From Ohtaekwangia sp. (GTDB taxonomy: Bacteria > Bacteroidota > Bacteroidia > Cytophagales > Cyclobacteriaceae): a DNA stretch of 64,000 nucleotides. The stretch lies in NCBI GenBank assembly GCA_036503775.1, contig DASXWH010000188.1, forward strand, positions 15,461 to 79,460. The letters run 5' to 3'. The notes under the pieces were generated by a model. That model was not told where the DNA came from. It did no database searches and saw only the letters and a list, made by a program, of their open reading frames with translations. The position numbers were made by a program, and so were the translations under genes. Below are positions 15,090 to 32,671 of this stretch, in pieces; the stretch's first letter is position 1, and the number at the start of each line of letters is the position of its first letter.

Positions 15090-15120
15090 AAAAGGGGGGC
15101 TGATCGCCCCCTTTTTGTTT
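15090..15120 (+). terminator. Intrinsic terminator of the infC-rpmI-rplT operon
   Basis: AAAAGGGGGGC-TGATC-GCCCCCTTTTT. Confidence 0.85.
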
Positions 15121-15244: not shown

Positions 15245-18200
15245 ATGTTGAATCAACCACTTAATAACGAAGGCCAGAAATCAACATCTCCTGCATTGAT
15301 CGATGTTCAGGTAGAAGGAGAAAATCCTTTTCCAGGTCTGCGTCCCTTTACCATTGAAGAGTGCCATCTGTTTTTTGGACGAGAGGGGCAGGTGGATGAA
15401 ATCCTTAATCTAATCTCAAAAAACCGGTTTGTTTCAGTACTGGGTTACTCTGGTAGCGGTAAGTCCTCTCTTATGACTTGCGGTCTTATCCCCGTGTTAT
15501 ATGGTGGCTTTGTTACCAATTCAGGACCGCATTGGAATGTAATTTCCGCCCGCCCGGGAAATTCACCTATTCAAGGACTTACGGATGCTATCGTAAAGTT
15601 CATGGTGAATAAAAAGCAGATAAACCCTCAGGATACTCCCATTCACAAGGCTATTGTAAACTCCGTGCTTCGCAGCGGACCCAATGGATTGATCGATATT
15701 GCCCGATACATCCAGACGAATGAGAAAGAGAATATATTTCTGCTGATTGACCAGTTTGAAGAGATATTCAGGTACAGGACTGAAGAATCGGGTGAGATCC
15801 AGAATGACGGTCAGCTTTTTGTCAGTCTGGTTTTAAATGCCGTGCAGCAGTCTGATGTATCCGTTTATGCAGCCTTAACCATGCGCTCTGATTTCATTGG
15901 AGAGTGTGCTGCCTTTCCCGGATTAACACAGCTTATTAATAACAGCAATTATCTCGTCCCGCAGATGAATCGGGAGCAGAAGAAAATTGCTATCGAAGGA
16001 CCTGTTGCTGTTGCCGGTGGCAAGATTTCGCAGCGTTTGGTGAAACGGCTCTTGAGCGATATGGGAAACAACCAGGATCAGCTCCCCATTCTTCAACATG
16101 CGCTTATGCGCACGTGGGATTATTGGATGGTGAATCGTGAGCCAGGTGAACCGCTTGATATCAGACATTACAATGCTGTTGGAAAGATATCCGAGGCATT
16201 GTCCCAGCACGCCAATGAAGCATACGATGAATTAACCACACGCAACAAGGCTATTGCTGAAGTGCTGTTTAAGAATATTACAGAACGCAACCAGGAGAAC
16301 CGGGGAATGAGGAGACCCTGCCGGCTGGGTTTAATAGCACAGTTGGCGGAAGCCAGCGAAGAAGAGGTGATGGATGTGGTGGAGCAGTTTAGAAAACCCG
16401 GTCGTTCGTTCCTGATGCCGGGTGCACATGTGTCCCTGACCAGTGATTCGATGATTGAACTTTCACACGAAAGTTTGATGCGTATCTGGAACAGGCTTGA
16501 AGTATGGGTTGAGGATGAGTTCGAGTCAGCATCCATGTATAAGCGTTTGTCTGAAGCCGCTGCCATGTATCAGATTGGCAAAACGGGTTTATGGCGTCCG
16601 CCTGATTTACAACTCGCATTAAACTGGCAAAAGAAACAGAGGCCAACCCGTGAGTGGGGACAACGTTATGATGAAGCCTTTGAACGTGCTGTAGTATTCC
16701 TTGACACCAGCCGGATTACCTATGAGGCTGAATTAAAAAATCAGGAGATGATGCAGAGGCGCGTACTGCGAAGGACGCGCGTAACAGCAGTCATTTTAGG
16801 TATAGCTTTCATTGTCGCGATCCTTTTCTTCGTGTATGCTTACCTGCAAAAACTTCAGGCCGATACGGACAGGCTTTATGCGGAAACTCAAACCATAGAA
16901 GCCAAGAAGCAGCAGGCGGAAGCCTTGAAGCAAAAAACAGAAGCCGATAAGCAACGTGAATCTGCCCAGAATGCCAGAGACCAGTTGCAAACCTCTCTTC
17001 AAACCTTGGAAGATGCTTATGAATTGGTGGAGCGGGAACGTGATCGTGCTGAGGCTGCTCTTTTGTTTGCTAAAATCGAAGAGGAGCGTGCCGTAGAAGC
17101 CGGAGCAAAAGAAAAGATCGCGTTGGAAGAAGCACAGATGAACCTTGAACTGGCGGAAGCCAACCTGAACTATGCCAACAGTCTTTACTTTCTGACAAAA
17201 GCGCAGGAATTGGCTTCGAAAGCAGCCGTAGAGGAAGACGATAAACAATTAGCCGGCCTTCAGGCCATGCAAGGGTATATCTACCACAGAAGATATAATG
17301 GTAAAACCTATGATCCTTATATCTACCGCGGTCTTTACAGCGCTATAACCAAGCTGGATAATTCGAATTACAATGCCATGAAGATTCAGGGCCCGCCAAG
17401 GGTACACCTGAAATCACTTGTTGTCCCTAAAGGTGGAAAAGAATTTTATGTTTCAGGAGTTGATGGCCGTGTATACCGTGGTGACTTTCAAAAGCTCACG
17501 AATTCGGTCATGAATTTTGCTACCCCTTATCCCAGCAAAGTAATAGCCATCAGTAATGATCAGTCTGTTCTGGTAAATGGAAGTGACTCAACGTTCATCC
17601 AGATATATAATCTTCAAAAGAGCGCTAAAGCTTCAGTAGTAAAAGGCTTTAGTGGCCCAACCAATGACATTGAGTTCATACCGGGCAGTTCAGATTTTAT
17701 TGTGGTAAGCGGTGGCAATACAATCTCCAGAGTCACATCGAGTGGTGAGGCCAGAACACTGGCAAAGCTTCCTTTTGAATTAAAAACAATAACCATAAGT
17801 CCGGACGGAAACACGGTGGCCGGTGGAACATGGTCTGGCCAGGTGGTATTGTTTGACTTAAGAAACAACAATCATAGAGTGTTATTCGATGAAGTATCAA
17901 GCCGCATATTATCTATAAAGTATAACCCTTCAGGTACGCAGCTGGCCTACGGTTTAGAAGATATTGCCAACAAGCGTGGTCTGGTTAAGCTGTATGATTT
18001 CGCCTCTGAAAGATCAAGGCAGTTTACGGGACATAAAGCTGGTGTTAATGATGTTGAGTTCAGCGCGGATGAGAAGTTGCTGGCCAGTGCCGGCCTGGAT
18101 AAACGACTTCAGTTGTATGTTCTTGAAAATGTTGAAGACCTGCCGGTAGTAATGGATAATAACAACGGTTATGTATGGGATATCGCCTTTGCAAATGGCT

Positions 18201-18388
18201 CCGATATATTGATTGCTTCCTGCAGTGAATCTGAAATCAGAGTATGGCCGACTGATCCGGCTACACTGGCTGAATTAATATGTCCTAAGATCACCCGAAA
18301 CATGACACAGGATGAGTGGAAAAGATATGTAGGGAAGGAGATCAGTTATGAGAACACATGTATAAATGTATTGATACAACAACGCTGA
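15245..18388 (+). CDS. nSTAND1-like NTPase + single TM + coiled coil + WD40 beta-propeller
   Basis: NPFPGLRPF, FFGRE, Walker A GYSGSGKSS, Walker B LLIDQFEEIF, LTMRSDF, QLPILQHAL, ELSHESL; TM VTAVILGIAFIVAILFFVYAYL (~16781-16846); A/E/K/Q-rich helix; WD40 repeats (GHKAGVNDVEFSADEKLLASAGLDKRLQLY). Confidence 0.88.
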   Translation: MLNQPLNNEGQKSTSPALIDVQVEGENPFPGLRPFTIEECHLFFGREGQVDEILNLISKNRFVSVLGYSGSGKSSLMTCGLIPVLYGGFVTNSGPHWNVISARPGNSPIQGLTDAIVKFMVNKKQINPQDTPIHKAIVNSVLRSGPNGLIDIARYIQTNEKENIFLLIDQFEEIFRYRTEESGEIQNDGQLFVSLVLNAVQQSDVSVYAALTMRSDFIGECAAFPGLTQLINNSNYLVPQMNREQKKIAIEGPVAVAGGKISQRLVKRLLSDMGNNQDQLPILQHALMRTWDYWMVNREPGEPLDIRHYNAVGKISEALSQHANEAYDELTTRNKAIAEVLFKNITERNQENRGMRRPCRLGLIAQLAEASEEEVMDVVEQFRKPGRSFLMPGAHVSLTSDSMIELSHESLMRIWNRLEVWVEDEFESASMYKRLSEAAAMYQIGKTGLWRPPDLQLALNWQKKQRPTREWGQRYDEAFERAVVFLDTSRITYEAELKNQEMMQRRVLRRTRVTAVILGIAFIVAILFFVYAYLQKLQADTDRLYAETQTIEAKKQQAEALKQKTEADKQRESAQNARDQLQTSLQTLEDAYELVERERDRAEAALLFAKIEEERAVEAGAKEKIALEEAQMNLELAEANLNYANSLYFLTKAQELASKAAVEEDDKQLAGLQAMQGYIYHRRYNGKTYDPYIYRGLYSAITKLDNSNYNAMKIQGPPRVHLKSLVVPKGGKEFYVSGVDGRVYRGDFQKLTNSVMNFATPYPSKVIAISNDQSVLVNGSDSTFIQIYNLQKSAKASVVKGFSGPTNDIEFIPGSSDFIVVSGGNTISRVTSSGEARTLAKLPFELKTITISPDGNTVAGGTWSGQVVLFDLRNNNHRVLFDEVSSRILSIKYNPSGTQLAYGLEDIANKRGLVKLYDFASERSRQFTGHKAGVNDVEFSADEKLLASAGLDKRLQLYVLENVEDLPVVMDNNNGYVWDIAFANGSDILIASCSESEIRVWPTDPATLAELICPKITRNMTQDEWKRYVGKEISYENTCINVLIQQR

Positions 18389-18392
18389 TGGT

Positions 18393-19553
18393 ATGAGATT
18401 ATCCCGGGTTGTTCTGACTATTTTTTTTGCTGCAGCAATTAGCTGTCTTCAGGCTCAGGATCAGTGCGAACTTACGCTAGGCCAGGCTGCAGATGAATTC
18501 AACGCGGGTCATTTCTATGACATACCGGGCTTGTTGAAAGATTGTCTTAATCAACGGCAGAAACCGGAATGGCGTCAGCGTGCATATCTGCTTTTAGCCC
18601 AAACGTATTTGCTCCTTGACGATCCTGAAGGTGCTGAACGAAGCTACCTGGAGGTACTCAGAGCGAACCCGGAGTATGTTACGAATGACACTCAGGACCC
18701 TATTGATTTGGTTTATCTGAGTTCAAAATTCACTGCCTCACCTGTTTTTTCCCTGTTCGGCAAGATTGGCCCTAATGTTTCGATCATCAGACAGATCGTT
18801 GACCGCAAAGCCTTTGTAGGCAGTATTGATGAGCGTTATATACTTCGACCGGGATTTCAGATTGCCTTTGGAGCGGACTGGAACTATGACGACAACCTTT
18901 CTGTGGCACTGGAAGGGAATTTTGTTTTCAGTGCGTACAAATTGGAAAGCAAAGGTGTATTCGACCATGATGTGGTAGAATTTAAAGATCAGCAAACCTG
19001 GGCCCGGATACCACTGTCTGTTAAGTACACCGATGATCAGGGAAAATACCGGCCTTATGGATATGTAGGGATTTCAGCTGACATCCTCTTGAGCGATAGA
19101 GCTACATTCCTGTATACCGATGGCACGCTTAACCAAACGGATGGAGTTGTAAAAATGGACCAACAGGTTGAGGAGAGTCCCGTGTTGAATTTAAAATCCA
19201 AACGAAACACATTTAATTACTCCTGGTTTATTGGTGGTGGACTTAAATACAAACTTGGTCTTCAATACGCCTTTATTGACCTGCGCTATTCATTTGGAAT
19301 GACCAACCTGGTCAATACAAATAATAGTATCTATGAATACGGCATGGGTGACAGAACCTCAGCGGATTTTCAGGGCACCGGAGAACCGACAATGACCTGG
19401 GGACACATTGATGATTATTTCAGAATGGATAATCTGTTTTTATCTGTGGGATATGTATACCCGCTCTATAAGCCACGAAAATTGAAGAAGGCCCGTTCGC
19501 GATCTGTTTTACGTTCGATCAAAAAACAAAAGCATGAAGTTACGGGCGACTAA
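18393..19553 (+). CDS. Outer-membrane beta-barrel (PorT/OMP_b-brl_2-like) with N-terminal TPR-like domain
   Basis: Signal peptide to LQAQ; helical AYLLLAQTYLLLDDPEGAERSYLEVLRANPEY; alternating strands RIPLSVKY, RPYGYVGISADILL, FIDLRYSFGMTN, LSVGYVYP. Confidence 0.72.
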   Translation: MRLSRVVLTIFFAAAISCLQAQDQCELTLGQAADEFNAGHFYDIPGLLKDCLNQRQKPEWRQRAYLLLAQTYLLLDDPEGAERSYLEVLRANPEYVTNDTQDPIDLVYLSSKFTASPVFSLFGKIGPNVSIIRQIVDRKAFVGSIDERYILRPGFQIAFGADWNYDDNLSVALEGNFVFSAYKLESKGVFDHDVVEFKDQQTWARIPLSVKYTDDQGKYRPYGYVGISADILLSDRATFLYTDGTLNQTDGVVKMDQQVEESPVLNLKSKRNTFNYSWFIGGGLKYKLGLQYAFIDLRYSFGMTNLVNTNNSIYEYGMGDRTSADFQGTGEPTMTWGHIDDYFRMDNLFLSVGYVYPLYKPRKLKKARSRSVLRSIKKQKHEVTGD

Positions 19554-20865
19554 TCTTTTATTTATTCTGACGTTGCTTTGTATTGCTTTTGCCTGTGATA
19601 CAGGTGGGGAGTATACGGGAGAATCTGAAAAGTATTTTATTAAATACTATGGTGAAGATGGAGAACAGGAAGCAGTCGATTTCCATATTAATGACGATGG
19701 AACGGTGCTTATTCTCGCCAGTACAGTAACACCTTCAGGTTTCAAGCAGATACTGCTAATTAAAGTCGATGATAAGGGGAATATCCTCTGGCAAAAAAAA
19801 TACGGAACACCAAATGTAAATGAGGGGCCTCAGGACATTGAACCTACTGTAAATGGCGGACAATTTCTGATCTTATCAAACATGTTTTTAGGAACCGATC
19901 CGTCAACAAATGAAGGTAAGTATGACTTCAAGGTAATTCGAATTGAAGAAGATGGTACAAAGATCGATAGCATGGTGTTTAACAATAACGGGGGTGACTG
20001 GGAAACTCAGTTTATGCGGTCGATAACTCCGATCTCTAATGGAGGTTTTGTTACTACGGGAAACTCTACTGATGAAACTATTTTTGATCCTGATAAAGTC
20101 CCACCCTCGGTTGATCTGGAAGAATTAATCATTCTCACATTTAATTCTGACTATTCACAATACTTGTCGCAAAATCCGGTATCGCCCGGAGAACAATTTG
20201 GTTCGGGCATTAAAATCTTTGAGGATGGTAATGATGCAGACAGATTTTTTTGGTTCTGTTACCTCGATCAGAAACCGGCCAGTCATGAAGCTGAGAATTC
20301 AAACTTTGCAACGTTCAGTTTTGGATTGAGCGGCCAGTTGGAAGTACCACCTCCGGGTAGCGAATCAGCTGTGTTCTCAGGTGTGGATGGTACCGATGAA
20401 ATATTAGTCTCGGTTTGCAAAGTACCGAATTCTCTGGGGGGAGGATTTTATGAATTGGGAACATCCCGATCTTCATCTACGGCAACATCGGGAACGTTGT
20501 ATTTTAGTCGGAGAGGTCCAAACCTTACAAAAACAAGTGAAGGTTTCGTATTGAATAAGGAGGGTAATCCGTTAGGCGGTAATCTTTCCGCTGTAGATGT
20601 AGCACCTGCTAAAGTGGTTGAAGGTTTTTTAGTATTAGCGAATGAACAGACTTCAACGGGAAGTACGATACGTCTGACCAGGCTCACATCATCAAGCCGG
20701 GAGGAATGGTCAACTAATTTTGGATCATTTGGCAGGTTCAACAGCGGAGCAAAAGTGGCCGAATTACCGGACGGAAGAATCTTTGTTTTGGGGACAATTG
20801 CACTGGAAACTCAGAAGAAGGTAGCCCTGATCAAGGTTAATCGGAATGGCGAATTTTTAAACTAG
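19534..20865 (+). CDS. Lipoprotein, probable beta-propeller-like repeats, function unknown
   Basis: Lipobox ..IAFA-C at residue 21; repeats LLIKVDDKGNILWQKKYG, RLTSSSREEWSTNFG, LIKVNRNGEF. Confidence 0.7.
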   Translation: MKLRATNLLFILTLLCIAFACDTGGEYTGESEKYFIKYYGEDGEQEAVDFHINDDGTVLILASTVTPSGFKQILLIKVDDKGNILWQKKYGTPNVNEGPQDIEPTVNGGQFLILSNMFLGTDPSTNEGKYDFKVIRIEEDGTKIDSMVFNNNGGDWETQFMRSITPISNGGFVTTGNSTDETIFDPDKVPPSVDLEELIILTFNSDYSQYLSQNPVSPGEQFGSGIKIFEDGNDADRFFWFCYLDQKPASHEAENSNFATFSFGLSGQLEVPPPGSESAVFSGVDGTDEILVSVCKVPNSLGGGFYELGTSRSSSTATSGTLYFSRRGPNLTKTSEGFVLNKEGNPLGGNLSAVDVAPAKVVEGFLVLANEQTSTGSTIRLTRLTSSSREEWSTNFGSFGRFNSGAKVAELPDGRIFVLGTIALETQKKVALIKVNRNGEFLN

Positions 20866-20942
20866 CGTAAAGCTTGTATATTTCGTGGTTACATTTTTTA
20901 AGGGAAATTCATAAACACCCTAACCGGAATCCCCTTTTGACA

Positions 20943-23900
20943 ATGAGGAGATATTTTTTAGCCTTTTTAGTAACCCTTTCCGCTTTTGCGGCAATTCCGG
21001 CTCATGCCCAGTGTAATTTCACGGGTCTTAATTCTTCGTATTGTATTGACAATGGCTTGGTTCCGCTCACCGGAGGGACTACATATTATGGCCCTGGTGT
21101 TACCGGAAGCAATTTTAATCCATCAGTTGCCGGACTAGGTACCCACCAGCTTGTTACCACTTCAGGATCAGCAACTACTTACTTTGTTCAAACAACAGGC
21201 ACGTTTAATCCTGTGGCAGGATCAGGGACTTCGGTCGTACTGGCCGATGATGCAGAAACCGGATTATTAAGCATCGGTTTTACATTCAATTTTTTTGGTA
21301 CCAACTATACCGATCTGCGTATCGCTTCGAATGGACTATTGGGGTTTGGATCTCCAGCTGCATTAACAAACAGTAACAATGTGGCACTGCCAAATGCAGT
21401 TGATCCGGACAATATTATCGCCTTTGCCTGGGATGACCTGAATCCTGCTCTCGGAGGTACGATCGATTACTTCACAACAGGTTCTGCACCCTACCGGAAG
21501 TTCATCGTGAACTTCACGAATATCAGACGAGTTACTTCGTTGACTACAGTTACTATACAGGTGCAGCTCCATGAGAGCACCAATATCATAGAGCTTCACT
21601 CCACGAATGTTGACTTCTCAGCCAACTTTGCTACACAGGGTATTGAAGGTCCTGATACGGGTACTACGGTGGCTTATGTTGTACCCGGTAGAAATCTCGC
21701 TTCGTTTACCGCTGTCAACGACTTTAAAGCATTTGTCCCGACTTGTGTCGATATCCAGAATGTAACGGTCACTGGATTACCAACGGCTTCGCTTACGGTT
21801 TCACCGGCTTCAACTACCGTATGTGCAGGAAGTTCTGTTCCTGTTACCATTACATCGGCACAGGCGGGTGTACTCTACCAGCTTCGTAACAATGCAACAA
21901 ATGTTCCGCTTAGCGGGAGTTTTTCGGGATCAGGTGGTAATCTGATTATCAATAGCGATCCCATCTCAGCAAACACAGTTATAAAAGTCTACGCACAAAA
22001 TGCAACTACACTTTGTGATGTTGATCTTTCAAACCTTGTAACCGTTACCACCACAACACCTCCGACAGCAGCAGCGGCTGGCTCTGATAATTCTGTATGT
22101 GGACTGACGGCAAATCTTACCGGAAATATTCCTGGAGTTGGTACAGGATTATGGACGAAAATAAGCGGCCCGGGAACAGTTAATTTTGGTGATAATACAC
22201 TTGGAACATCAACCGCTACGGTTGATGCATATGGTACGTACATTCTTCGCTGGACAACAAGCAATGGAGTATGTACACCAAGTACAGATGATGTTATAAT
22301 AACCTATAGCCAGGCTCCGATCATTGCCACCGATCCATCTCCTCAGGTTGCCTGTACCAACTCATCTGCCACGTTCAGTGTAGTTGCTAATGGCACAGCG
22401 CTTACATATCAGTGGCGTAAAGGTGGAGTTAACATAGGAGGGGCAACCAGTTCGAGTTATACCATATCCAATGTAACAGCCACTGATGTCGACAACTATG
22501 ATGTCGTGGTGAGCGGCTCATGTGGCTCACCAGTTACCAGTACAGCAGCTTCCTTAACTGTAAATTCGTTACCATCAATTTCTGTTCATCCTGTATCGCA
22601 ATCAATTTGCGTAGGAGGTGGGGTTACATTTAGTGTTACAGCCGCAGGTACAGGTGTTACGTATCAGTGGCGCAAGGGGGGAGTAAACATAGTCGGAGCT
22701 ACGAGTTCAAGTTATAGCATAGCCAGCGTTGCCACGGGTGATGCGGGACTTTATGATGTAGTGGTAGGGGGCACGTGTACACCAAGTGTGACGAGTGCAT
22801 CTGCGACCTTAACGGTCAATACCCTTCCGTCCATCACGGCTCAGCCTGCACCCGCGCAGTCGATCTGCGAGCGCAGCGGAGTAAGCTTCAGTGTTACGGC
22901 TACAGGCACGGGCTTAACGTATCAGTGGCGCAAGAACGGAGTAGACATCGGAGGCGCCACGGGTTCACTGTATACGATAGCATCCACCAGTACTTCCGAT
23001 GCTGGCAGCTACACGGTAGTGGTGAGCGGCACCTGTACACCGGGAGTTACCAGCGCAGCGTCAGTATTAACCATCAACGAGCAGCCGGAGATCCTTACGG
23101 GTCCGGTGTCGCAGTCTATCTGTGTGGGCAGTGGCGTTACCTTCACGGTGTCTGCGGGTGTGACTACAGGTGTTACGTATCAGTGGCGCAAGGGGGGAGT
23201 AAACATAGTCGGAGCTACGAGTTCAAGTTATAGTATAGCCAGCGTTGCCACGGGTGATGCGGGACTTTATGATGTAGTGGTAAGCGGCACGTGTACACCA
23301 AGTGTGACGAGTGCATCCGCGACCTTAACGGTCAATACCCTTCCGTCCATCACGGCTCAGCCTGCACCCGCGCAGTCTATCTGCGAGGGCAGCGGAGTAA
23401 GCTTCAGTGTAACGGCTACGGGTACAGGCTTAACGTATCAGTGGCGCAAGAACGGAGTAGACATTGGAGGCGCGACAGCTTCCACCTATTCCATATTGAA
23501 TGTAACAACTGCCGATGCAGCAGACTATGATGTTGTTATCAATGGTACCTGTACACCTGGAGTCACGAGTGCAATAAGTGCGCTTGCTGTAAATACCTTA
23601 CCGGTAATCACAGCACATCCGGTAACAAGCCAGACGATCTGTGAAGGAAGCATTGCCAGCTTTAGTGTCACGGCAACCGGCACAAACCTGACCTATCAGT
23701 GGCGGAAGAATGGCGTGGATATCGGAAGCGCAACCTCTTCAACATATACCATTCCTGCTACGGCAACGACCGATGCCGGAGTTTACGCTGTTTTAGTTAG
23801 TGGCACATGTGTACCTCCGATGTTGAGTACAAGCTCTCAGCTTATCATCAACGAACAACCCGAGATAATCACGCAACCTGTTTCCGAGATTATTTGTGCA

Positions 23901-26900
23901 GGTCAGAATGTGACCTTCAGCGTGGATGCTGGTGTTACTACAGGCGTAAGTTATCAATGGAGAAAAAATGGATCGAACATAGGAGGGGCAACATCCTCAA
24001 CGTATACCATTACGAATGCGGTAGCAGGTGATGCCGGCAGCTATGACGTAGTGATAAGTGGTGCCTGTGCACCGAGCTTACCAAGTTCAGCGGCAACACT
24101 CACAGTAAATCCGATTCCGGATGCGCTGGCTTCAGATCAGGCAATATGCAGTGGGCAAACAACCAATATCGCCATCACTAATCCGAATGGAGTTTCAGGT
24201 ACTACATTCAGCTGGACAGTGCAGAATTCAATTGGCGTCAGTGGTGCCTCCGCAGGAACCGGTGGACCGAACACGGCTAACATTGCCCAACTGCTTTCAA
24301 CGACCGGACCTGCACAGGGATCGGTGACATACATAATAACACCTGTGGCTGCGGGATGTAATGGAACTTCTGTAGCGGTGAGTGTGAATGTTAAACCTAT
24401 CCCGGATGTTGCCGCGTCACCACAGGTTATTTGTAACGGATCGAGTACAAGTATTGCGATAACAAATCCGAATGGTGTTGCCAATACAACCTTTACATGG
24501 ACTGTAGTATCATCTCCCAACGTTACCGGAGCATCAGCCGGAACGGGGTCTGCAATCACTCAGGTTTTGAATTTAGTATCCGCTACCAGTTCGGGAACAG
24601 TTACCTACGAGGTTACACCCATTTCCGGTGGTTGTCTGGGAACACCTGTTACCGTTTCTGTCACGGTTAATCCAAGGCCTCAGATCACAACACCTCCGGC
24701 ATCTATGATCCAGGAGATCTGTAGTGGTGTGCCATTGAATTTTACACCATCAACCTCGATCGGAGCTACATTGGACTGGACATCTTCCATTGTAGGACCT
24801 CCATTGACAGGTGTTTCAGCTTCCGGTTCAGGAGCGATAACGGATACTCCTGTCAACGCTTCGAATACAAGCTCATTCATTATCTATACCATAACACCTT
24901 CAATAGGAGGAACCTGCAGCGGAACTCCAGCGAATTTTGTTGTGAATGTTAAACCGAGACCAACAGCAGCAGCTAATCCACAAACGATCTGTTCTGGAAA
25001 TTCAACGTCTGTGTCGATCACAAACCCCAACAATGTTTCGGGAACAACCTTCTCCTGGGTGGCAACACCTACGGATGTGAACGGATATTCAGATGGTTCC
25101 GGAAATGTAATCAGCCAGGTGCTTTCTACGGCTATTATGGATACTCCGGGATCAGTAGATTACTTGATAACGCCTTCAGCCAATGGCTGCGCAGGAACAC
25201 CGATCAATGTCCTGGTGGATGTTAAGCCTGTACCTGTAATTACCAATACGGCTGCGAGTTTGTCACAACAGATATGCAGTGACGAGACCCTAAATCTTAA
25301 CCTGACCTCAACAATTACAGGGGCCACTTTCTCCTGGACAACTACATTTACCGGGCCGATTGATCCGGCATCGATCAATGCGGGTTCCGGAACCGTTATA
25401 AATGATTCGCCCAGGAACATTGGAAATACAACAGGTATCGTTACCTATACCATCACACCAAGTTTCAACGGTTGTGATGGTGTACCTGTCAGCTTTGTTG
25501 TTGCTGTTAAACCCATCCCATCTGCAACGGCATCAAATGTCACGGTCTGCAGCGGTGAGACAGCTATCGTATCCATACTTCCGACACCGAATAATGTTGC
25601 GGGAACTACTTTCGCATGGACAGCTACACCAACTTCAAATGTTGTGGGAGGGCTAAGCGGAAACGGCTCCACGATCAGTCAGACATTATCCACAACGGAT
25701 GCATCCATTGGATCGGTTACATATTCGATCACTCCAACGGCTAATGGATGTAGTAATCCTGTACCTGTAACGGTGACGGTTACCGTGAATCCTTCTGTAA
25801 CCGTGAATGCAGGTTCTGACTTTAGTGTATGTGAACCCGTTACTTTCCCGATCAGCGGAACGGTATCCGGAAGCGCTACTACCGGAACATGGTCAATCGT
25901 TTCTGGTGGTGGTACCTTATCTTCAAGTTCAACTGCGCCTTCAGGAACTCCGGGCGAATATTTAATTACAGCAACCTACACAGTTGATCCTGCAGATATA
26001 GCTGCAAGCGTTACGTTCAGATTAACCACAAATGATCCGGATGGCGGTTCAGGACCTTGCACAGACAAATCAGATGAACTGACGGTAAATATTAATGAAC
26101 AGGCAAAGCTGACTGTTCCGGCTAACTATACAGTTTGTGAGCCGACCAGATTTACACTTGCCGGAACCTTAACCGGTAGTGCTACATCGGGTTCATGGAG
26201 TTTGATAACGGGTAACGGTGGTTTAAATGTAAGTAATGTTTCGGTGGTGAGCCCGACACTGCGGAATGTAACCGCAGACTATTTCCCGGATGTCACTGAC
26301 GTTACAACTACTTTACGGTTCAGATTGACTACGATTGATCCGGATGGTTCCGGTCCTTGCGTGGCCGAATACGCTGAGGTTGACGTTCATGTGAATCAGT
26401 CTGCTCGTGTTAATGCAGGTATTGATTTTGAAATATGCAAAGGCGAGGTTGCCCAACTCAATGGAAGCCTTGCACCTTCAGCATCGTCAATTACCTGGAG
26501 TGGTGAACCTGCCTCGCGGTTCTCTGATATAAATGATCTGGCATCTCAGTTCATGCCAACGCAGGCAAACATTGATGCTGGTGGTGTTACATTAACGATC
26601 TCTTCAAATGATCCGGATGGTAGCGGACCCTGCGGCATTGTAAATGATGATGTGTTCATCAGGATTAATCCTATTCCTCAACCTGTGATAGCAGACCTGG
26701 CAAATTCATATGCGGAGAATGACCCGATCGTGCCCATCACGGGTTTCCCGTCTCCGGGTGTATTCACAGGACCTGGTATACAAGCCGGAACAAACCTTTT
26801 CGATCCGGGTGATGCGAACATCGGTTTTGATACGATTGTGTATACGTATACCAACCCTACTACAGGTTGCGTTGGAGATACGAGCAAGGTTGTTATCATT

Positions 26901-29396
26901 AACCCGCTTACAGATATAAATTTTGGTCTGCAGGTTGAAGGCTCTCCGTTTGTTGATTTCAGTATCGAACCTAAGATATGCAGTAACAATGGAAAGGTGA
27001 GACTAATTGGTGATCCGGATATTTCGGAAGGCGAGGATCCTACCGATTTTTCCGCCCCGATCACTCCGGAAATACTGGGTTCAGACGCGATGGGTTGGTA
27101 CATAAATACAGATGGAAGATGGTCCGGTCAATACTTTGTTAAGTATACCTACACCAATGAGTTCGGTGCAACCAACGAGATCCTGAAGAAGATCATTATA
27201 AATGCTTCACCGAAAGCTCAGATCGGAGCTAGTAATTCATGCGTAACGGATATCGTTCAGTTCACTGACCTGTCTGTGATACCGGATGATTCATTGAATG
27301 CACAAATAGAAAGGTGGGAGTGGGACTTTGATGACGGAGGCGCCAAGAAAACAGATCAGAACCCGGATTGGAAATTCGACACAGAAGGATTTTATGACGT
27401 GGTGTTGACTGTCACTACATTTGATAACTGTACAGCAGATACCGTTAAGCAGATACGTATTGGTACAACACCGGATGTTGACTTTGAGTGGACAAAAGTA
27501 TGCGTGTCACGTGATACAACTGAGTTTAGAAATTTGTCCGATGGAGGTATCAGTAATATTATAAAATACCAGTGGGATTTTGGTGATACCTATACAACGC
27601 CTTTGGATACAGCATCCGAAATGATTCCTCCGACACTGGATGGCGGCCGCACGTCCAACACATTCCAGGATCCTTATCATAAATACGATGCTTTCTCAAC
27701 GTACAATGTAGTACTTACAGCAGAGACGGATGATGGTTGTATCAGTTCGAAAACGAAGAAAGTATACATTCTCGACTACCAGAAACCGGATGAAGAACTG
27801 GATTCAGCCTACATTGAAAACTTCGACAGTGGCCCAGGTACATGGGTGAAGATAGATGCTGATACCGCATCGAGTTGGGTGTTCGGTCTCCCTGCCGGAA
27901 ATGTGATTAATTCTGCGGCTTCGGGTAACAATGCATGGTGGACAGGTTCGAATCCGAATTCAGTCACGGATTACAGTACGTACTTCGACAATGAAAACTC
28001 TGAAGTTATCGGACCCTGTCTGAATTTGAGTGCGCTTGAACGGCCTATGATATCACTCAGCTACTGGTCAGATACCCCGCAGGGATTTGATGGAGCAGTC
28101 GTTCAATATTCAACCGATGGTGGACAAAACTGGGAAACGATCGGGGACGCTTTGGGTGCTGGTATTAACTGGTATAATGCACCTGACCTTGTAAGTGAAC
28201 CCGGTGGACAGGATAACTATGCATGGTCATCACGTAATGCAAAATGGAGAAGAGCAAGCTTCAACCTGGATCAGATAACCCAGCGTGATCTGGTAGTGTT
28301 CCGGGTAGCGTTTGCAAGTAATAATGATAACCTGAATGATCCGAAAACATTAAATGGTTTTGCATTCGATGATATTTATATCGGTGAGAAGAGAAAGAAT
28401 GTGTTGGTTGAACATTTCACCAGTGATAATCTTGATGCTCCAGGTCTTTTCGCAATTGACTACCTGGATGGTCTTGATGCCCGGAACTTCAACCGGATCC
28501 AGTACCACATTGCCAATCCTTCCGGTGATGTTATCAACGAAGCTAATCAGGCTGATCCGTATGCGCGAACGCTTTTGTATAGCGTGCAGGCTGCACCGGT
28601 TGCGATCATGGATGGTATTACCGGGGCTTTTGGTAAAGAAACCAACTTCAACGGAGCGTATGACAAAATAACCAATGAAGAATTAGACAGAAGATCACTT
28701 GAAGAGCCTTCATTTGATATAACAGTTGACATTAATCCTTCTGCACCGGATATGTTGAATGTTGATTTCCAGTATTCATTTATTGATATGGATGATACGA
28801 TTTCAGCTCCGGTCATCTTACACGCTGCATTGGTGGAGACAGGTTTACCGGGTAATCCGTATGGTAATAAGAACTCATTACGGAAGCTTCTCTTTGGTCC
28901 GGAGGGATGGGTTATTGATGCTCAATTGAATGCAGGGGTATTGTTTGACTCCATACGATCGAATATGAATTTCCCGATTGATGTTCCGGTGGTCGATGGT
29001 AACAAGCTTTCAATCATTGCCTTTGTACAGGAAAAGAAAACGACACGGATACTTCAGTCGGTACAGGTGCCCATTCCAGGTCCTAAGCAATCACAGGCTC
29101 CGGTAGGACTTCCGGATGATCCGATTGTGTCTGAGATCAGTAAAGTAAGTATCTATCCTAACCCGGCATCCCAGAACATCAACGTGTACCTGGAAGAGAA
29201 GCTGAAACATGACTATCACTGGAAGATCATTGACCAGCGTGGTGTGGTGGTATTGGATGGTGAACTGCAGCGCGATCTGACCAACGCTCAGCAGGTGGAT
29301 ATCAGCACCATTGCCAATGGTATTTACTTCATGGCCATTCAGTATGGCGACCGTGCAGTTCTCTACAAGAAGATAGCGGTGATGAACAGAAATTAA
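20943..29396 (+). CDS. Giant T9SS-secreted multi-domain surface protein (nidogen-like, Ig, PKD-like, PKD, MAM/ConA-like, Omp28-like, type A CTD)
   Basis: ATG at 20943 gives signal peptide MRRYFLAFLVTLSAFAAIPAHAQ; 7x QWRK(N/G)G Ig units; 6x TF.W...V.Y.ITP units; 3x DPDG(G)SGPC units; W(E/Q)WDF PKD motifs; CTD IYPNPASQ...ANGIYFMAI...KKIAV. Confidence 0.88.
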   Translation: MRRYFLAFLVTLSAFAAIPAHAQCNFTGLNSSYCIDNGLVPLTGGTTYYGPGVTGSNFNPSVAGLGTHQLVTTSGSATTYFVQTTGTFNPVAGSGTSVVLADDAETGLLSIGFTFNFFGTNYTDLRIASNGLLGFGSPAALTNSNNVALPNAVDPDNIIAFAWDDLNPALGGTIDYFTTGSAPYRKFIVNFTNIRRVTSLTTVTIQVQLHESTNIIELHSTNVDFSANFATQGIEGPDTGTTVAYVVPGRNLASFTAVNDFKAFVPTCVDIQNVTVTGLPTASLTVSPASTTVCAGSSVPVTITSAQAGVLYQLRNNATNVPLSGSFSGSGGNLIINSDPISANTVIKVYAQNATTLCDVDLSNLVTVTTTTPPTAAAAGSDNSVCGLTANLTGNIPGVGTGLWTKISGPGTVNFGDNTLGTSTATVDAYGTYILRWTTSNGVCTPSTDDVIITYSQAPIIATDPSPQVACTNSSATFSVVANGTALTYQWRKGGVNIGGATSSSYTISNVTATDVDNYDVVVSGSCGSPVTSTAASLTVNSLPSISVHPVSQSICVGGGVTFSVTAAGTGVTYQWRKGGVNIVGATSSSYSIASVATGDAGLYDVVVGGTCTPSVTSASATLTVNTLPSITAQPAPAQSICERSGVSFSVTATGTGLTYQWRKNGVDIGGATGSLYTIASTSTSDAGSYTVVVSGTCTPGVTSAASVLTINEQPEILTGPVSQSICVGSGVTFTVSAGVTTGVTYQWRKGGVNIVGATSSSYSIASVATGDAGLYDVVVSGTCTPSVTSASATLTVNTLPSITAQPAPAQSICEGSGVSFSVTATGTGLTYQWRKNGVDIGGATASTYSILNVTTADAADYDVVINGTCTPGVTSAISALAVNTLPVITAHPVTSQTICEGSIASFSVTATGTNLTYQWRKNGVDIGSATSSTYTIPATATTDAGVYAVLVSGTCVPPMLSTSSQLIINEQPEIITQPVSEIICAGQNVTFSVDAGVTTGVSYQWRKNGSNIGGATSSTYTITNAVAGDAGSYDVVISGACAPSLPSSAATLTVNPIPDALASDQAICSGQTTNIAITNPNGVSGTTFSWTVQNSIGVSGASAGTGGPNTANIAQLLSTTGPAQGSVTYIITPVAAGCNGTSVAVSVNVKPIPDVAASPQVICNGSSTSIAITNPNGVANTTFTWTVVSSPNVTGASAGTGSAITQVLNLVSATSSGTVTYEVTPISGGCLGTPVTVSVTVNPRPQITTPPASMIQEICSGVPLNFTPSTSIGATLDWTSSIVGPPLTGVSASGSGAITDTPVNASNTSSFIIYTITPSIGGTCSGTPANFVVNVKPRPTAAANPQTICSGNSTSVSITNPNNVSGTTFSWVATPTDVNGYSDGSGNVISQVLSTAIMDTPGSVDYLITPSANGCAGTPINVLVDVKPVPVITNTAASLSQQICSDETLNLNLTSTITGATFSWTTTFTGPIDPASINAGSGTVINDSPRNIGNTTGIVTYTITPSFNGCDGVPVSFVVAVKPIPSATASNVTVCSGETAIVSILPTPNNVAGTTFAWTATPTSNVVGGLSGNGSTISQTLSTTDASIGSVTYSITPTANGCSNPVPVTVTVTVNPSVTVNAGSDFSVCEPVTFPISGTVSGSATTGTWSIVSGGGTLSSSSTAPSGTPGEYLITATYTVDPADIAASVTFRLTTNDPDGGSGPCTDKSDELTVNINEQAKLTVPANYTVCEPTRFTLAGTLTGSATSGSWSLITGNGGLNVSNVSVVSPTLRNVTADYFPDVTDVTTTLRFRLTTIDPDGSGPCVAEYAEVDVHVNQSARVNAGIDFEICKGEVAQLNGSLAPSASSITWSGEPASRFSDINDLASQFMPTQANIDAGGVTLTISSNDPDGSGPCGIVNDDVFIRINPIPQPVIADLANSYAENDPIVPITGFPSPGVFTGPGIQAGTNLFDPGDANIGFDTIVYTYTNPTTGCVGDTSKVVIINPLTDINFGLQVEGSPFVDFSIEPKICSNNGKVRLIGDPDISEGEDPTDFSAPITPEILGSDAMGWYINTDGRWSGQYFVKYTYTNEFGATNEILKKIIINASPKAQIGASNSCVTDIVQFTDLSVIPDDSLNAQIERWEWDFDDGGAKKTDQNPDWKFDTEGFYDVVLTVTTFDNCTADTVKQIRIGTTPDVDFEWTKVCVSRDTTEFRNLSDGGISNIIKYQWDFGDTYTTPLDTASEMIPPTLDGGRTSNTFQDPYHKYDAFSTYNVVLTAETDDGCISSKTKKVYILDYQKPDEELDSAYIENFDSGPGTWVKIDADTASSWVFGLPAGNVINSAASGNNAWWTGSNPNSVTDYSTYFDNENSEVIGPCLNLSALERPMISLSYWSDTPQGFDGAVVQYSTDGGQNWETIGDALGAGINWYNAPDLVSEPGGQDNYAWSSRNAKWRRASFNLDQITQRDLVVFRVAFASNNDNLNDPKTLNGFAFDDIYIGEKRKNVLVEHFTSDNLDAPGLFAIDYLDGLDARNFNRIQYHIANPSGDVINEANQADPYARTLLYSVQAAPVAIMDGITGAFGKETNFNGAYDKITNEELDRRSLEEPSFDITVDINPSAPDMLNVDFQYSFIDMDDTISAPVILHAALVETGLPGNPYGNKNSLRKLLFGPEGWVIDAQLNAGVLFDSIRSNMNFPIDVPVVDGNKLSIIAFVQEKKTTRILQSVQVPIPGPKQSQAPVGLPDDPIVSEISKVSIYPNPASQNINVYLEEKLKHDYHWKIIDQRGVVVLDGELQRDLTNAQQVDISTIANGIYFMAIQYGDRAVLYKKIAVMNRN
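22649..23476 (+). repeat. Near-identical intragenic direct repeat (22649-22960 and 23165-23476)
   Basis: Two ~312-bp copies offset by 516 bp (172 codons); I count 12 mismatches by eye (~96% identity). Confidence 0.9.
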
Positions 29397-31309
29397 TCGG
29401 GGAGTATTTCCTGTGAAAGTTCTGGGAGGATCACATTGCACCGGTTGATAAAGTCATTGGCTAACCTTTTCACTTCCGACAGATTGGTTTGAGCTTTACT
29501 GTTTTCTTCAATGAAAACAATATCAGATCGCATAGCATCAAGGCCCATGAGGGTGAAAGATGGTTTGATCTGGTGAACAAGCCTGGATAGTTTAGTCCAG
29601 TCGCTGGCTTCCATGGATACTTTCATCTCCTGAAGAACCGGTGGTATGGTTTGGATAAAGGTTGTCACCATTTCCCGGATAAATTCCTGGTTGTTACCGG
29701 ATACTGAACGGAGGTAATCCAGATTGTAAGTAGGGGTACCGGCAGGCTTGAATGACTTAAGTATCTCCTTGTCACTGGGCCTGATCTTTAAATCTTCAAA
29801 GAGCTTGCGATAGAGATCTTCTGGCGTGAAGGGCTTTGGCAGGTAATCGTTCATACCGGCAGCAAGGCATTTTTCGACATCGTGGGGTGTAGCGTTCGCT
29901 GTCAGCGCGATTATGGGAACCTGTGCAGATTGAGCCATCGCCCGGATTACTTTGGTGGCTTCGTATCCATCCATTACCGGCATCTGGATATCCATCAGAA
30001 CAACATCAAAGAAACTGTTCTTGATTTTTTCAATGGCTACCAATCCGTTTTCTGCCGTGTCAATGAGGCAATGCCATTTCTTCAAAATGCTCTTGGCGTA
30101 AAGACGGTTGATGTCGTTATCCTCTACCAGTAATACCCTCAGCTCTTCAACTTTTGTATCTTTTAATACTTTGTCTTGTTGTGGTGTGGTGTTCAGAATA
30201 GCTTTTACTTTTCCGATAGAGTAGGGGATTACCACCATAAATGTGGATCCGACATTCTCACGACTCACCACATGTATTTTACCATTCTGCAATTCCACCA
30301 GTTGTCGTACAATGGTAAGTCCAAGGCCTGTACCACCATACCTTCGCGTAACGCTTTCATCGGCCTGGCTGAAGCTTTCAAAAATGGTATTCAGTTTTTC
30401 TTCCGGGATACCAATGCCCGTATCACTCACTTCAATTTTTACCCAGCAGACACCCCGCTGTTCCCGCTCAGCAAAACATTTGATCTGTATTGATCCATTG
30501 TGAGTGAACTTCACGGCATTGCTGATCAGGTTGATGAGGATCTGATTTAACCTCACCGGATCACCCAACAGTATTTTATTCAGCTTCTCATCGATGGAGT
30601 AGCTCAGATCAATTTTCTTTTCCTTGGCCTGATAGGTAAACGTTCCAATGAGCGAGGGGAGAAGGTCGAGTAAATTGAAGGCTATTTTTTCGAGACGCAG
30701 TTTCCCGGATTCTATGGCGGCAAGATCCAGGATATCATTGATGATCACCTTGAGGTTTTCAGCGGAATGGCGGATAGCATTCAGGTATGTTTCGCGTTCA
30801 TCAGGGCTTGGATTTTGTCCCAGCAGGTTAGCCATCCCGGCTATTCCATTAATGGGGGTCCGTATTTCGTGACTGATGTTTGCCAGAAATTGTTCTTTGG
30901 CTTTTTGAAGACGCTTAAGTTCAACCTCATCATTCTTTCGTTGTTCAATATTACGGCAGTCCAGAATGAACCCGGATAATCCTTCCTTATGCTTCAGGTT
31001 GATAGCGTTGAATTCCAGGTAGCGGTATGTTCCGTCTTTGCTGAGGAACTGAAATTCTACATTTTCAGTGTACGCACGTTTTTGGCTGAGCTTGAATTTC
31101 TCACGCATCTCCTTCACCGTTGAAGGAAGCAGATAGTCAAAAAAGTTCTTGCCTATGAGGCTTTTTGCCCGGTAGCCCAGGGTTTCCATTACGGAAGCAT
31201 TGTGGTAGTTAATGTTTCCGGTATAATCAACCACAAAGATGATATCCGAACCGTCTTCAACAACGGCTTCGTAGAAAGCACCTTTCTTAACGTAGTTCTG
31301 TAATTTCAT
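29393..31309 (-). CDS. Cytoplasmic hybrid histidine kinase (PAS-HisKA-HATPase-REC-Hpt)
   Basis: PAS N-terminus with no TM; FLANISHEIRTPING; NAVKFT, DTGIGI, GGTGLGL; VLMDIQMP; Hpt-like LVHQIKPS. Confidence 0.92.
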   Translation of the reverse strand: MKLQNYVKKGAFYEAVVEDGSDIIFVVDYTGNINYHNASVMETLGYRAKSLIGKNFFDYLLPSTVKEMREKFKLSQKRAYTENVEFQFLSKDGTYRYLEFNAINLKHKEGLSGFILDCRNIEQRKNDEVELKRLQKAKEQFLANISHEIRTPINGIAGMANLLGQNPSPDERETYLNAIRHSAENLKVIINDILDLAAIESGKLRLEKIAFNLLDLLPSLIGTFTYQAKEKKIDLSYSIDEKLNKILLGDPVRLNQILINLISNAVKFTHNGSIQIKCFAEREQRGVCWVKIEVSDTGIGIPEEKLNTIFESFSQADESVTRRYGGTGLGLTIVRQLVELQNGKIHVVSRENVGSTFMVVIPYSIGKVKAILNTTPQQDKVLKDTKVEELRVLLVEDNDINRLYAKSILKKWHCLIDTAENGLVAIEKIKNSFFDVVLMDIQMPVMDGYEATKVIRAMAQSAQVPIIALTANATPHDVEKCLAAGMNDYLPKPFTPEDLYRKLFEDLKIRPSDKEILKSFKPAGTPTYNLDYLRSVSGNNQEFIREMVTTFIQTIPPVLQEMKVSMEASDWTKLSRLVHQIKPSFTLMGLDAMRSDIVFIEENSKAQTNLSEVKRLANDFINRCNVILPELSQEILPD

Positions 31310-32671
31310 TTAAATCCCTGCCGCCTCCATTTCCTTGAGATATCGGTAAAGGGAGGATTTTCCAATATCAAGCTTCTGCGCTACATCCAGCACATTATTG
31401 TCATACTTGTTCAGGTAATGGCGGATGATGCGATACATAAATTCCTGCATGGTCATTTCCTGGTATAGGAAAGACTCCATTCGGGTAGTGCTGTTGAAGC
31501 TTATATCCTGTGCGCGTATCTCCTGGTCTTCAGCCATAACTGCAGACAATTCAATAATCGATTTAAGCTCACGGATGTTTCCCGGGAAGGGGTATTGAAG
31601 CAGCTTTTCCTGTGCCTCCTGGCTGATTTTAAACTTGCGCATCTGGTTATCCTGAGCGAACTGATCCAGGAAATGTTTGGCTATAAGTATCACATCCTGA
31701 CCACGTTCACGTAACGGTGGTAAATGGATGGGTAAGCCCAGCAGACGATAATATAAGTCCTCGCGGAACCGCCCGCCTTTCACTTCTTCAGCCAGATCTT
31801 TATGCGTTGCAGCGATGATCCGAACATCCAGCTTTATTACCTGATTACCACCGATTCGGGTTATTTCCCGCTCTTGCAATACCCGTAAAAGTTTAGCCTG
31901 AAGGTTAAGGTCCATCTCACCAATTTCATCCAGGAAAATGCTGCCGCCTTCAGACTCTTCAAACTTCCCGATCCTGCGGGTGACCGCCCCGGTAAAGGAG
32001 CCCTTCTCATGACCGAAGAGTTCACTTTCAATAAGGTCTCTTGGAATAGCGGCAATGTTAACGGCTACGAACGGTTTGTTCTTGCGCTTGGAATTATAAT
32101 GAATGGCCTTGGCCACAAGTTCTTTACCTGTACCTGTTTCTCCCGATATACTTACTGAGATGTTAGTCTGAACCGCCTTTTCCAGAAGTGAAAAGGTGCG
32201 CTTGATCGCAACACTTGTACCGATGATGCTTTTTTCGAACTCGTACTTTTCTGAAATTTCCTTTTTCAGATGGTCGATTTCTTTGATCAGCGAGGTGCGG
32301 TTCCTGGCGTTATTGATCGAGTTAAGAAGACGCTCTTTTGTTTCGTGGTCTTTTGAAATATAGTCATAGGCTCCCAGTTTCAGGAGTTCCACCGCGGTGT
32401 GGATTTTCTCCTGAGCAGAAACCACAATGACGTTGATGTTGGGATCATGACTCCTTATCTGACTCAGCACTTTTTCTCCGGGCATGTCCGGTAAGGAATA
32501 GTCCAGTGTAATTACGGCTGGGTTTTTATACAGATTCTCCAGGCAGTTCTTGCCCGAATTGTAATACTCCACTTCATAGTCCGGATTGAGTTCCAGAACA
32601 TATTTGAGGAATTTGGTGTATGCAGGATCATCCTCAACTACAAAAATTTTAACGGGATCTTTCTCGTACAT
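31310..32671 (-). CDS. Sigma-54-dependent response regulator (NtrC family)
   Basis: REC (VVEDD, TLDYSLPD); GETGTGKE; GSFTGA; FLDEIGEM; FREDLYYRL; GNIREL; C-terminal HTH. Confidence 0.92.
   Translation of the reverse strand: MYEKDPVKIFVVEDDPAYTKFLKYVLELNPDYEVEYYNSGKNCLENLYKNPAVITLDYSLPDMPGEKVLSQIRSHDPNINVIVVSAQEKIHTAVELLKLGAYDYISKDHETKERLLNSINNARNRTSLIKEIDHLKKEISEKYEFEKSIIGTSVAIKRTFSLLEKAVQTNISVSISGETGTGKELVAKAIHYNSKRKNKPFVAVNIAAIPRDLIESELFGHEKGSFTGAVTRRIGKFEESEGGSIFLDEIGEMDLNLQAKLLRVLQEREITRIGGNQVIKLDVRIIAATHKDLAEEVKGGRFREDLYYRLLGLPIHLPPLRERGQDVILIAKHFLDQFAQDNQMRKFKISQEAQEKLLQYPFPGNIRELKSIIELSAVMAEDQEIRAQDISFNSTTRMESFLYQEMTMQEFMYRIIRHYLNKYDNNVLDVAQKLDIGKSSLYRYLKEMEAAGI

Follow-up and report, generated by a model that had tools for sequence, protein, structure and literature searches.

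The window analysed here is a 64,000-nucleotide (nt) stretch of an Ohtaekwangia sp. genome (contig DASXWH010000188.1), and it carries four consecutive plus-strand genes whose products are predicted to occupy successive layers of the cell envelope. The open reading frames (ORFs) lie at 15245 to 18388 (1047 amino acids [aa]), 18393 to 19553 (386 aa), 19534 to 20865 (443 aa), and 20943 to 29396 (2817 aa). Genes 1 and 2 are separated by 4 nt, genes 2 and 3 overlap by 20 nt, and genes 3 and 4 are 77 nt apart, spacings that look typical of translational coupling. The length of the fourth product is counted from the ATG at 20943; the longest open frame begins at a TTG at 20874. Upstream of the four genes lie thrS, infC, rpmI, and rplT, followed by an intrinsic terminator (15090 to 15115, plus strand; a 9-bp G+C-rich stem and then a T-run) that, in this lineage, delimits the cluster on its upstream side. 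With the exception of this terminator, a scan for sigma-70 promoters and terminators gave counts not above those in shuffled sequence, and the Bacteroidota -7 box (TANNTTTG) was not found in the 129-nt leader. An earlier note, made from the letters of this stretch, had listed the same ORF coordinates, spacings, rplT terminator, and domain calls, all of which we reproduced. Two kinds of cluster are compared throughout: the "window type," meaning the rplT-side cluster of the window, and the "paralogous type," meaning clusters like a second one carried by the same genome on contig C185.

Gene 1 (15245 to 18388, plus strand) encodes a predicted bitopic STAND nucleoside triphosphatase (NTPase) with a cytoplasmic nSTAND1 domain, one transmembrane (TM) helix, a helical stalk, and a periplasmic WD40 propeller. 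Membership in the nSTAND1 clade was clear (PF20703, residues 28 to 443, 15326 to 16573; 307.6 bits against a cut-off of 27.1), and the Walker A (GYSGSGKSS) and Walker B (LLIDQFEE) motifs are both present, the former and the DQFEE core of the latter being kept in at least 95% of 69 homologues. The protein is 60 to 70% identical to its orthologues, and its start (MLNQP...) is conserved among relatives. For the NTPase domain, identity averages 71% among window-type proteins and 52% against those of the paralogous type; for the propeller it is 58% among window-type proteins. Just 27 unconserved residues precede the NTPase domain, with rplT and its terminator upstream of the gene, and no fused or adjacent effector (TIR, caspase, trypsin, or EAD) of the sort found in nSTAND1 conflict systems was detected at the window locus.

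The single TM helix (residues 513 to 534; 16781 to 16846) has a core that is 100% apolar, and no N-terminal signal peptide was found in the protein. Lysine plus arginine in the 15 residues on the N-terminal side of the helix averages 6.0 (net charge, +5.0), compared to 2.6 on the C-terminal side (net charge, -0.3), and the excess lies on the N-terminal side in 69 of 69 homologues. Because positive charge accumulates before the helix, the positive-inside rule predicts an N-in/C-out topology, with a cytoplasmic NTPase and a periplasmic propeller. The propeller itself (profile matches at residues ∼730 to 1010) and a C-terminal cap span 17342 to 18385, and the cap holds two cysteines, C1013 and C1039, which are both present in 66 of the 69 homologues. 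This conserved pair, together with a second pair in the product of gene 2 (see below), would fit an oxidising compartment.

Between the membrane and the propeller runs a helical stalk (residues 539 to 652; 16859 to 17200). Measured between two conserved anchors in the homologue alignment, it comes to exactly 114 aa in 68 of the 69 proteins, whichever type they belong to, and to 128 aa (+14, or two heptads) in the other. Identity across the stalk is only 25 to 44%, with alanine recurring at heptad spacing. Strict length without conservation of sequence is the pattern that a spacer or ruler would show. If the stalk forms one single helix, it would measure ∼17 nm, the scale of a periplasm. The fixed length thus supports a bridge across the periplasm, in which a rigid stalk of invariant length is predicted to hold the WD40 propeller beneath the outer membrane. 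The STAND frame is interrupted in a few genomes or metagenome-assembled genomes (MAGs) (L045, L047, and L063; G251, G420, and G469), which have truncated ORFs of 603 to 888 aa or a single TAA in frame and may represent pseudogenes or faulty assembly.

The likely outer-membrane partner is the product of gene 2 (18393 to 19553, plus strand), which comprises a signal peptide, a TPR-like helical domain, a small beta-barrel, and a basic C-terminal helix. It matched OMP_b-brl_2 (PF13568) at 30.9 bits (cut-off, 27), and its TPR matches were sub-threshold. An AlphaFold2 model (pLDDT, 91) places four to five helices in the N-terminal TPR-like domain and ∼10 strands at residues 117 to 359. In Foldseek searches, the best matches of the barrel were OprG, OmpW, Ail, and OmpX (probability, 1.00), assigning it to the small-barrel fold class (OmpW/OmpX/OmpA, ∼8 to 10 strands). 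Since these are its nearest solved folds, the barrel is best read as an anchor rather than a channel, and we predict from the model that it is a small anchor bearing a periplasmic TPR-like domain. In an alignment of 37 orthologues plus paralogues, the cysteine pair of this domain (C25/C51) was kept in at least 90% of the barrels, and the twin-cysteine C-terminal tail of SprF-like proteins was absent. Two other assignments were tried and rejected: a PorT/SprT accessory barrel (NF052311; 20.1 bits against a cut-off of 125) and a secretion conduit, for which a barrel of the OmpW/OmpX class has the wrong size. Window-type barrels end in a basic tail of ∼20 residues (KPRKLKKARSRSVLRSIKKQ...; 19480 to 19553 in the window), which is a helix in the model; barrels of the paralogous type from Bacteroidales terminate directly after a KPKK motif.

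Gene 3 (19534 to 20865, plus strand) encodes a putative lipoprotein with a beta-propeller of the SBBP/DUF5122 type. The lipobox cysteine, Cys21, is invariant across 37 homologues; relatives read L-S-C-D-T, and in the window the sequence is A-F-A-C-D-T, with atypical residues at -3 and -2. The AlphaFold2 model (pLDDT, 89) is an all-beta propeller whose best Foldseek match was the CylK propeller (TM-score, 0.66), and profile matches to SBBP/delta-60 families were weak.

The last and largest gene (20943 to 29396, plus strand) encodes a giant putative surface protein in which a signal peptide and a conserved domain of ∼290 aa at the N terminus are followed by Ig/PKD-like repeats, a C-terminal module, and a C-terminal sorting domain (CTD) of type A, the signal for secretion through the type IX system (T9SS). 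Profile searches returned PKD_5, Ig_3, PKD_4, and the type A CTD, the last at residues 2737 to 2812 (TIGR04183, 32.9 bits against a cut-off of 23; PF18962, 45.5 bits against 27). A Sec signal peptide was read from the sequence (MRRYFLAFLVTLSAFAAIPAHA|Q), and T9SS core genes are present in the same genome (SprA on contig C191 and GldM on contig C206). The protein is therefore predicted to be exported by the general T9SS. Its N-terminal ∼500 aa are 42 to 56% identical at orthologous positions. At the other end, a "base" module (residues ∼2114 to 2816; 27282 to 29393) consists of PKD_4, a Reelin-subrepeat-B-like domain, ∼250 aa of unknown fold, and the CTD (29151 to 29378). A paralogue in the window genome has the same base (26% identity across 732 aa; E = 1e-52), as does a protein from a Bacteroidales locus (28% across 913 aa; E = 6e-77); the central repeat region is not common to giant proteins of different cluster types. 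Pfam searches at E values up to 1 returned no further domains in the N- and C-terminal modules, and PDB sequence searches with the C-terminal module, and with the TIR-like protein described below, returned PKD-domain matches only. Within the Ig-repeat region, two 300-nt blocks (22649 to 22948 and 23165 to 23464) are 97% identical and a third (23423 to 23722) is 66% identical, which points to recent intragenic duplication or gene conversion.

We then compared gene order across relatives, using one genome per species and 80 loci with a relative of the STAND gene; counts of gene order are limited to loci with sufficient flanking DNA. In every such related locus, the STAND gene was followed by the barrel, the lipoprotein, and a giant ORF. 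Three seeming exceptions at the barrel were truncated tblastn segments and not missing genes, and the lipoprotein came next in 58 of 58 window-type loci. In the most distant loci, which are of the paralogous type, it was identified by ORF, lipobox, and DUF5122/SBBP matches. The four-gene order, whose conservation had been proposed as a check in the earlier note, thus extends over two paralogous lineages and two orders, and the layers named there (cytoplasmic NTPase, periplasmic propeller, TPR domain on an outer-membrane barrel, lipoprotein, and T9SS cargo) agree with our predictions. The four genes are a co-inherited unit, and their arrangement is far beyond chance.

Of the 251 genomes of the window's GTDB family, 160 carried the STAND gene, as did 91 of its 132 genera, and among relatives the cluster sits in a fixed chromosomal context, with the order thrS-infC-rpmI-rplT-STAND preserved in 50 related loci. 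On the far side of the cluster, two minus-strand genes run towards the giant gene. The nearer encodes a hybrid histidine kinase (PAS-HisKA-HATPase-REC-Hpt; 29393 to 31309), and its stop codon overlaps that of the giant gene by 4 nt; the other encodes a sigma-54-dependent response regulator (31310 to 32671). This pair occupies the equivalent position in at least three other genera-level relatives (L055, G324, and G351) at 66 to 90% identity; its conservation beside the module may reflect either shared descent or a regulatory link.

The distant loci (in Raineya, an unclassified Cytophagales MAG, Bacteroidales, and Marinilabiliales) hold further genes. There, a protein of 435 to 490 aa with TIR_2 and DUF4062 matches precedes the STAND gene, and upstream of it lies a gene for a protein of ∼1050 aa with twelve predicted helices (MFS-like), HEAT repeats, and a cyclic-nucleotide-binding (cNMP) domain. 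HAMP-PP2C or HAMP-histidine-kinase genes at times intervene between these upstream genes. The window genome itself has a complete cluster of this paralogous type (contig C185, 1364 to 17134, minus strand), in which the genes abut with a gap or overlap of at most a few bases in the order MFS/HEAT/cNMP, TIR+DUF4062, STAND, barrel, lipoprotein, and giant protein, the last being a T9SS protein of 1847 aa. Identity between the C185 and window clusters is 40% for the STAND protein and 24% for the barrel. Taken together, the comparison of loci indicates that the ancestral unit is six genes: the MFS-like/HEAT/cNMP membrane protein, the TIR/DUF4062-like protein, the STAND-TM-WD40 protein, the barrel, the lipoprotein, and the giant protein. 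The four-gene unit put forward in the earlier note is accordingly co-inherited, as claimed, but incomplete, with two conserved partners encoded elsewhere in the genome.

Copy numbers of these unlinked partners follow the cluster. The window-type cNMP-domain protein is encoded on a separate contig (C23, 4.6 kb), and the sole TIR-like gene of this family in the genome sits in the C185 cluster. Phylum-wide, the cNMP-domain protein was found in 4 of 301 Bacteroidota genomes, all four of which have a full-length STAND-TM-WD40 protein in equal copies (2+2, 2+2, 1+1, and 1+1). Eight genomes hold a single such STAND gene, of the window type only, and all eight keep one TIR-like gene. Exactly one cNMP-domain gene was present in each of five window-type-only genomes tested (unlinked in the rplT-linked clade), and in a sixth it is adjacent. 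The distance varies: in one rplT-linked genus the cNMP-domain gene shares the strand of the STAND gene and lies only ∼16 kb downstream of it, a short way behind the cluster (G338:C4:10264-32189), and in another it lies ∼290 kb from it. In three window-type-only genomes examined, the TIR-like gene stands orphaned beside the same three genes that flank the C185 six-gene cluster; these orphan genes are intact (43 to 66% identity), and the remainder of the paralogous cluster has been lost there. A dependence of the window-type cluster on a paralogous cluster in the same genome was considered and rejected, given the eight genomes with the window type alone. Where a genome has both clusters, the STAND and cNMP-domain genes number two each and the TIR-like gene one; in the window genome, a single TIR-like gene probably serves two paralogous receptors.

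A maximum-likelihood tree of STAND proteins, with an unrelated nSTAND1 protein from the window genome as its root, gave a nested series. Forms linked to both the MFS-like and TIR-like genes branch deepest, followed by forms linked to the MFS-like gene and then by one clade of 53 rows, in which the window is nearest Ohtaekwangia and Pseudochryseolinea. In this clade, rplT is upstream in 50 of the 53 rows, that is, in all with upstream DNA. As read from the tree, the window is the most derived form and the last stage of an operon unbundling that occurred without loss of any part. We take this to be the strongest reason for thinking that the six genes function together.

The TIR-like partner may signal without being an enzyme. 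In its TIR module, the catalytic glutamate of a canonical TIR protein from the same genome aligns with hydrophobic residues in 13 of 13 TIR-like orthologues. Its DUF4062 module has an [E/D]-[I/L]-Q motif near the expected spacing, in an alignment that included no reference with a proven active site. Elsewhere in the genome, a third nSTAND1 protein (1306 aa) is encoded directly 3' of a canonical TIR-domain protein (472 aa; contig C120, 20733 to 26028); this pair looks like an ordinary soluble TIR-STAND system of the conflict type and appears unrelated to the envelope module.

Considering these data as a whole, we lean towards a reading in which the four genes of the window are the envelope half of a Bacteroidota-specific, six-component trans-envelope signalling module with a transmembrane, NLR-like STAND switch at its centre. 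Kept a set distance away from the inner membrane, the propeller would dock on the TPR-like domain of the barrel, on the lipoprotein, or on both, and these in turn would grip the giant surface protein by its base. If the giant protein were bound, pulled, or lost, this contact would change, and the change could flip the nucleotide switch or oligomeric state of the STAND protein in the cytoplasm. Output may then pass to the TIR-like protein, probably a scaffold and not an NADase, and to the cNMP-domain transporter-like protein. Outside-in is the more likely direction of signalling, although this is a guess.

Several points weigh against this proposal. Cargo with a type A CTD is normally cleaved and then released or lipid-anchored, which leaves a coupling of the giant protein to the barrel or lipoprotein unexplained. 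Compared to Ohtaekwangia, identities are 90 to 92% for thrS and 96% for rplT but 68% for the STAND protein, ∼60% for the barrel, 47% for the lipoprotein, and 42% for the N terminus of the giant protein. The module diverges much faster than its housekeeping neighbours, infC included, and divergence climbs outward, with the NTPase most conserved, the propeller roughly level with the barrel, the lipoprotein next, and the giant protein least conserved, a pattern that also fits a role in conflict. Much of the synteny inside the rplT-linked clade could be plain descent as well; the argument for a unit rests on the comparison of the two paralogous types.

A narrower version of the signalling module can be proposed tentatively, with odds that we place somewhat below even. 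STAND and NLR proteins are understood as cytoplasmic sensors. Here, a "transmembrane NLR" would use its periplasmic WD40 propeller to read a polymorphic giant protein via the barrel and lipoprotein and would report via a silent TIR-like adaptor and a cyclic-nucleotide-gated transporter-like protein, serving to sense surfaces, kin, or prey and not to trigger abortive infection. Such a device would give diderm bacteria a new outside-in signalling route made of immune-type parts.

Parts of this arrangement have precedents. The nSTAND1+TM+BetaPropeller architecture occurs 278 times in the source data for Figure 2 of Kaur, Iyer, Burroughs, and Aravind (eLife 2021, PMC8195603), whose supplementary tables also list two genes upstream of the STAND gene, giving an inner three-gene neighbourhood. 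These neighbourhoods correspond to the inner half of the C185 paralogous cluster, where both upstream genes adjoin; the window STAND protein matches the architecture, but neither upstream gene adjoins it, no effector is fused or adjacent, and the setting is not conflict-like. Rows in those tables end at the STAND gene, and the barrel, lipoprotein, and giant T9SS protein were not found in them. In the main text of that paper, nSTAND1 comes up a single time, with no treatment of topology or of the outer-membrane genes, and our text searches of the literature found no description of the six-gene module or its envelope half. The view taken in the earlier note, that no system of this composition had been characterised, therefore holds for the envelope half and for characterisation of any kind, but the STAND architecture and two upstream genes were already tabulated in PMC8195603.

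Among characterised STAND proteins, the Avs, bNACHT, and Apaf-1 types share with the window protein a P-loop STAND switch and a C-terminal repeat sensor; in Apaf-1, the WD40 propeller is the ligand sensor, and ligand binding drives oligomerisation (PMC13581612). Those proteins are soluble and cytoplasmic and respond to intracellular ligands, whereas in the window protein a membrane and a fixed stalk are predicted to separate the sensor from the NTPase. The window protein also differs from them in being tied to outer-membrane partner genes and in having no PADLOC match. DUF4062 (NIR) domains, with Swarozyc and human TEP1 and NWD1 as examples, have been described as TIR-like NADases, and in the two human proteins they are fused to NACHT-WD40 (bioRxiv 10.64898/2026.05.01.722283). 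The association of DUF4062, STAND, and WD40 recurs in the module, as a fusion in TEP1 and NWD1 and as neighbouring genes in the paralogous cluster. The TIR-like partner differs from these proteins in its sequence, with three predicted alpha/beta modules and no canonical TIR glutamate, and its gene lies outside the window.

Conceptual parallels also exist among trans-envelope systems. In FecA-FecR-FecI, TonB/TolA, and GldLM/PorLM, as proposed here, an inner-membrane protein spans the periplasm to an outer-membrane partner, and GldM/PorM and TolA use a long periplasmic spacer. There is no homology to these systems, however; the cluster lacks an ExbB/TolQ/GldL-type motor and a sigma or anti-sigma factor, and its transducer would be an NTPase switch. 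The SprB-SprF and PorP/PorT pairs are similar in genetic layout, in that a giant T9SS protein is likewise encoded beside a small dedicated outer-membrane barrel (PMC12635249). In contrast to those pairs, the window cargo has a CTD of type A and not type B, and the window barrel fails the PorT/SprT model, lacks the SprF twin cysteines, and has an N-terminal TPR-like domain.

This last resemblance bears on an alternative running from inside to outside, in which the STAND protein is a device dedicated to display, anchoring, or quality control of its own giant cargo via the barrel and lipoprotein, for example by controlling clustering or release. The giant T9SS gene is always last and has a conserved C-terminal base beside its CTD, the barrel is weakly similar to T9SS accessory barrels of the PorT/SprT type, and SprF sets a precedent as the dedicated barrel partner of the gliding adhesin SprB (PMC12635249). 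We nevertheless regard this alternative as unlikely. STAND NTPases are switches and not motors, a barrel of OmpW/OmpX size cannot pass a 2817-aa protein, the similarity to PorT/SprT stops at 20 bits where the model requires 125, the twin cysteines of the SprF tail are absent, and the cytoplasmic partners (cNMP-binding domain and TIR-like) resemble signalling parts. The suggestion in the earlier note that the NTPase powers display through the barrel is improbable for the same reason of size, the barrel being predicted to be a small OmpW/OmpX-class anchor.

A second alternative is an nSTAND1-type antiphage or conflict system that senses an attack on the envelope (a phage adsorbing to the giant protein, for instance, or an effector arriving in the periplasm) and triggers a TIR-dependent abortive response. 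Its ingredients are the familiar ones of conflict systems, nSTAND1, TIR, and DUF4062 all being hallmarks of these (PMC8195603; bioRxiv 10.64898/2026.05.01.722283). Distribution across the phylum is patchy, with an nSTAND1 match in 10 of 301 genomes and a full-length TM-WD40 form in 5; the repeat regions of the giant proteins are variable; and the outward rise in divergence described above also fits such a role. Against this, a search of PADLOC-DB 2.0 with seven proteins from five component families (the giant protein was not scanned) gave no family-level match for the STAND, barrel, lipoprotein, TIR-like, or cNMP-domain protein; the only matches were weak, one to a WD40 repeat (E = 2e-7) and one between the C-terminal region of the cNMP-domain protein, which Pfam assigns to cNMP binding, and a TIR "Effector" model (E = 2e-4). 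The cluster occupies a fixed housekeeping context that is syntenic over many genera, and not a defence island, and it is inherited vertically, in 91 of 132 genera of the family. In addition, the window-type operon has lost the TIR-like gene, the canonical glutamate position of the TIR-like orthologues is hydrophobic throughout (13 of 13), and the propeller is conserved and not hypervariable. We consider this explanation quite doubtful. That the four genes are functionally unrelated neighbours, retained by descent in a compact genome, is highly improbable: most of the 80 loci do fall in one family-level clade, where the flanking thrS-rplT genes and the histidine kinase/sigma-54 regulator pair are syntenic too, but the order persists between paralogues of 24 to 40% identity in one genome and in Bacteroidales with different flanks, the copy numbers of unlinked partners track the cluster, and the spacings suggest translational coupling.

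If the proposed signalling module is borne out, its consequences would reach beyond this locus. The module is common, being present in about two-thirds of the genomes of a large soil and freshwater Cytophagales family, and it is genetically compact. The window itself illustrates how an operon can be unbundled without loss of a part and thereby defines which genes belong together. With such a module, the NLR concept would be extended to extracytoplasmic sensing, and a large class of giant T9SS "adhesins" would gain a role in signalling.

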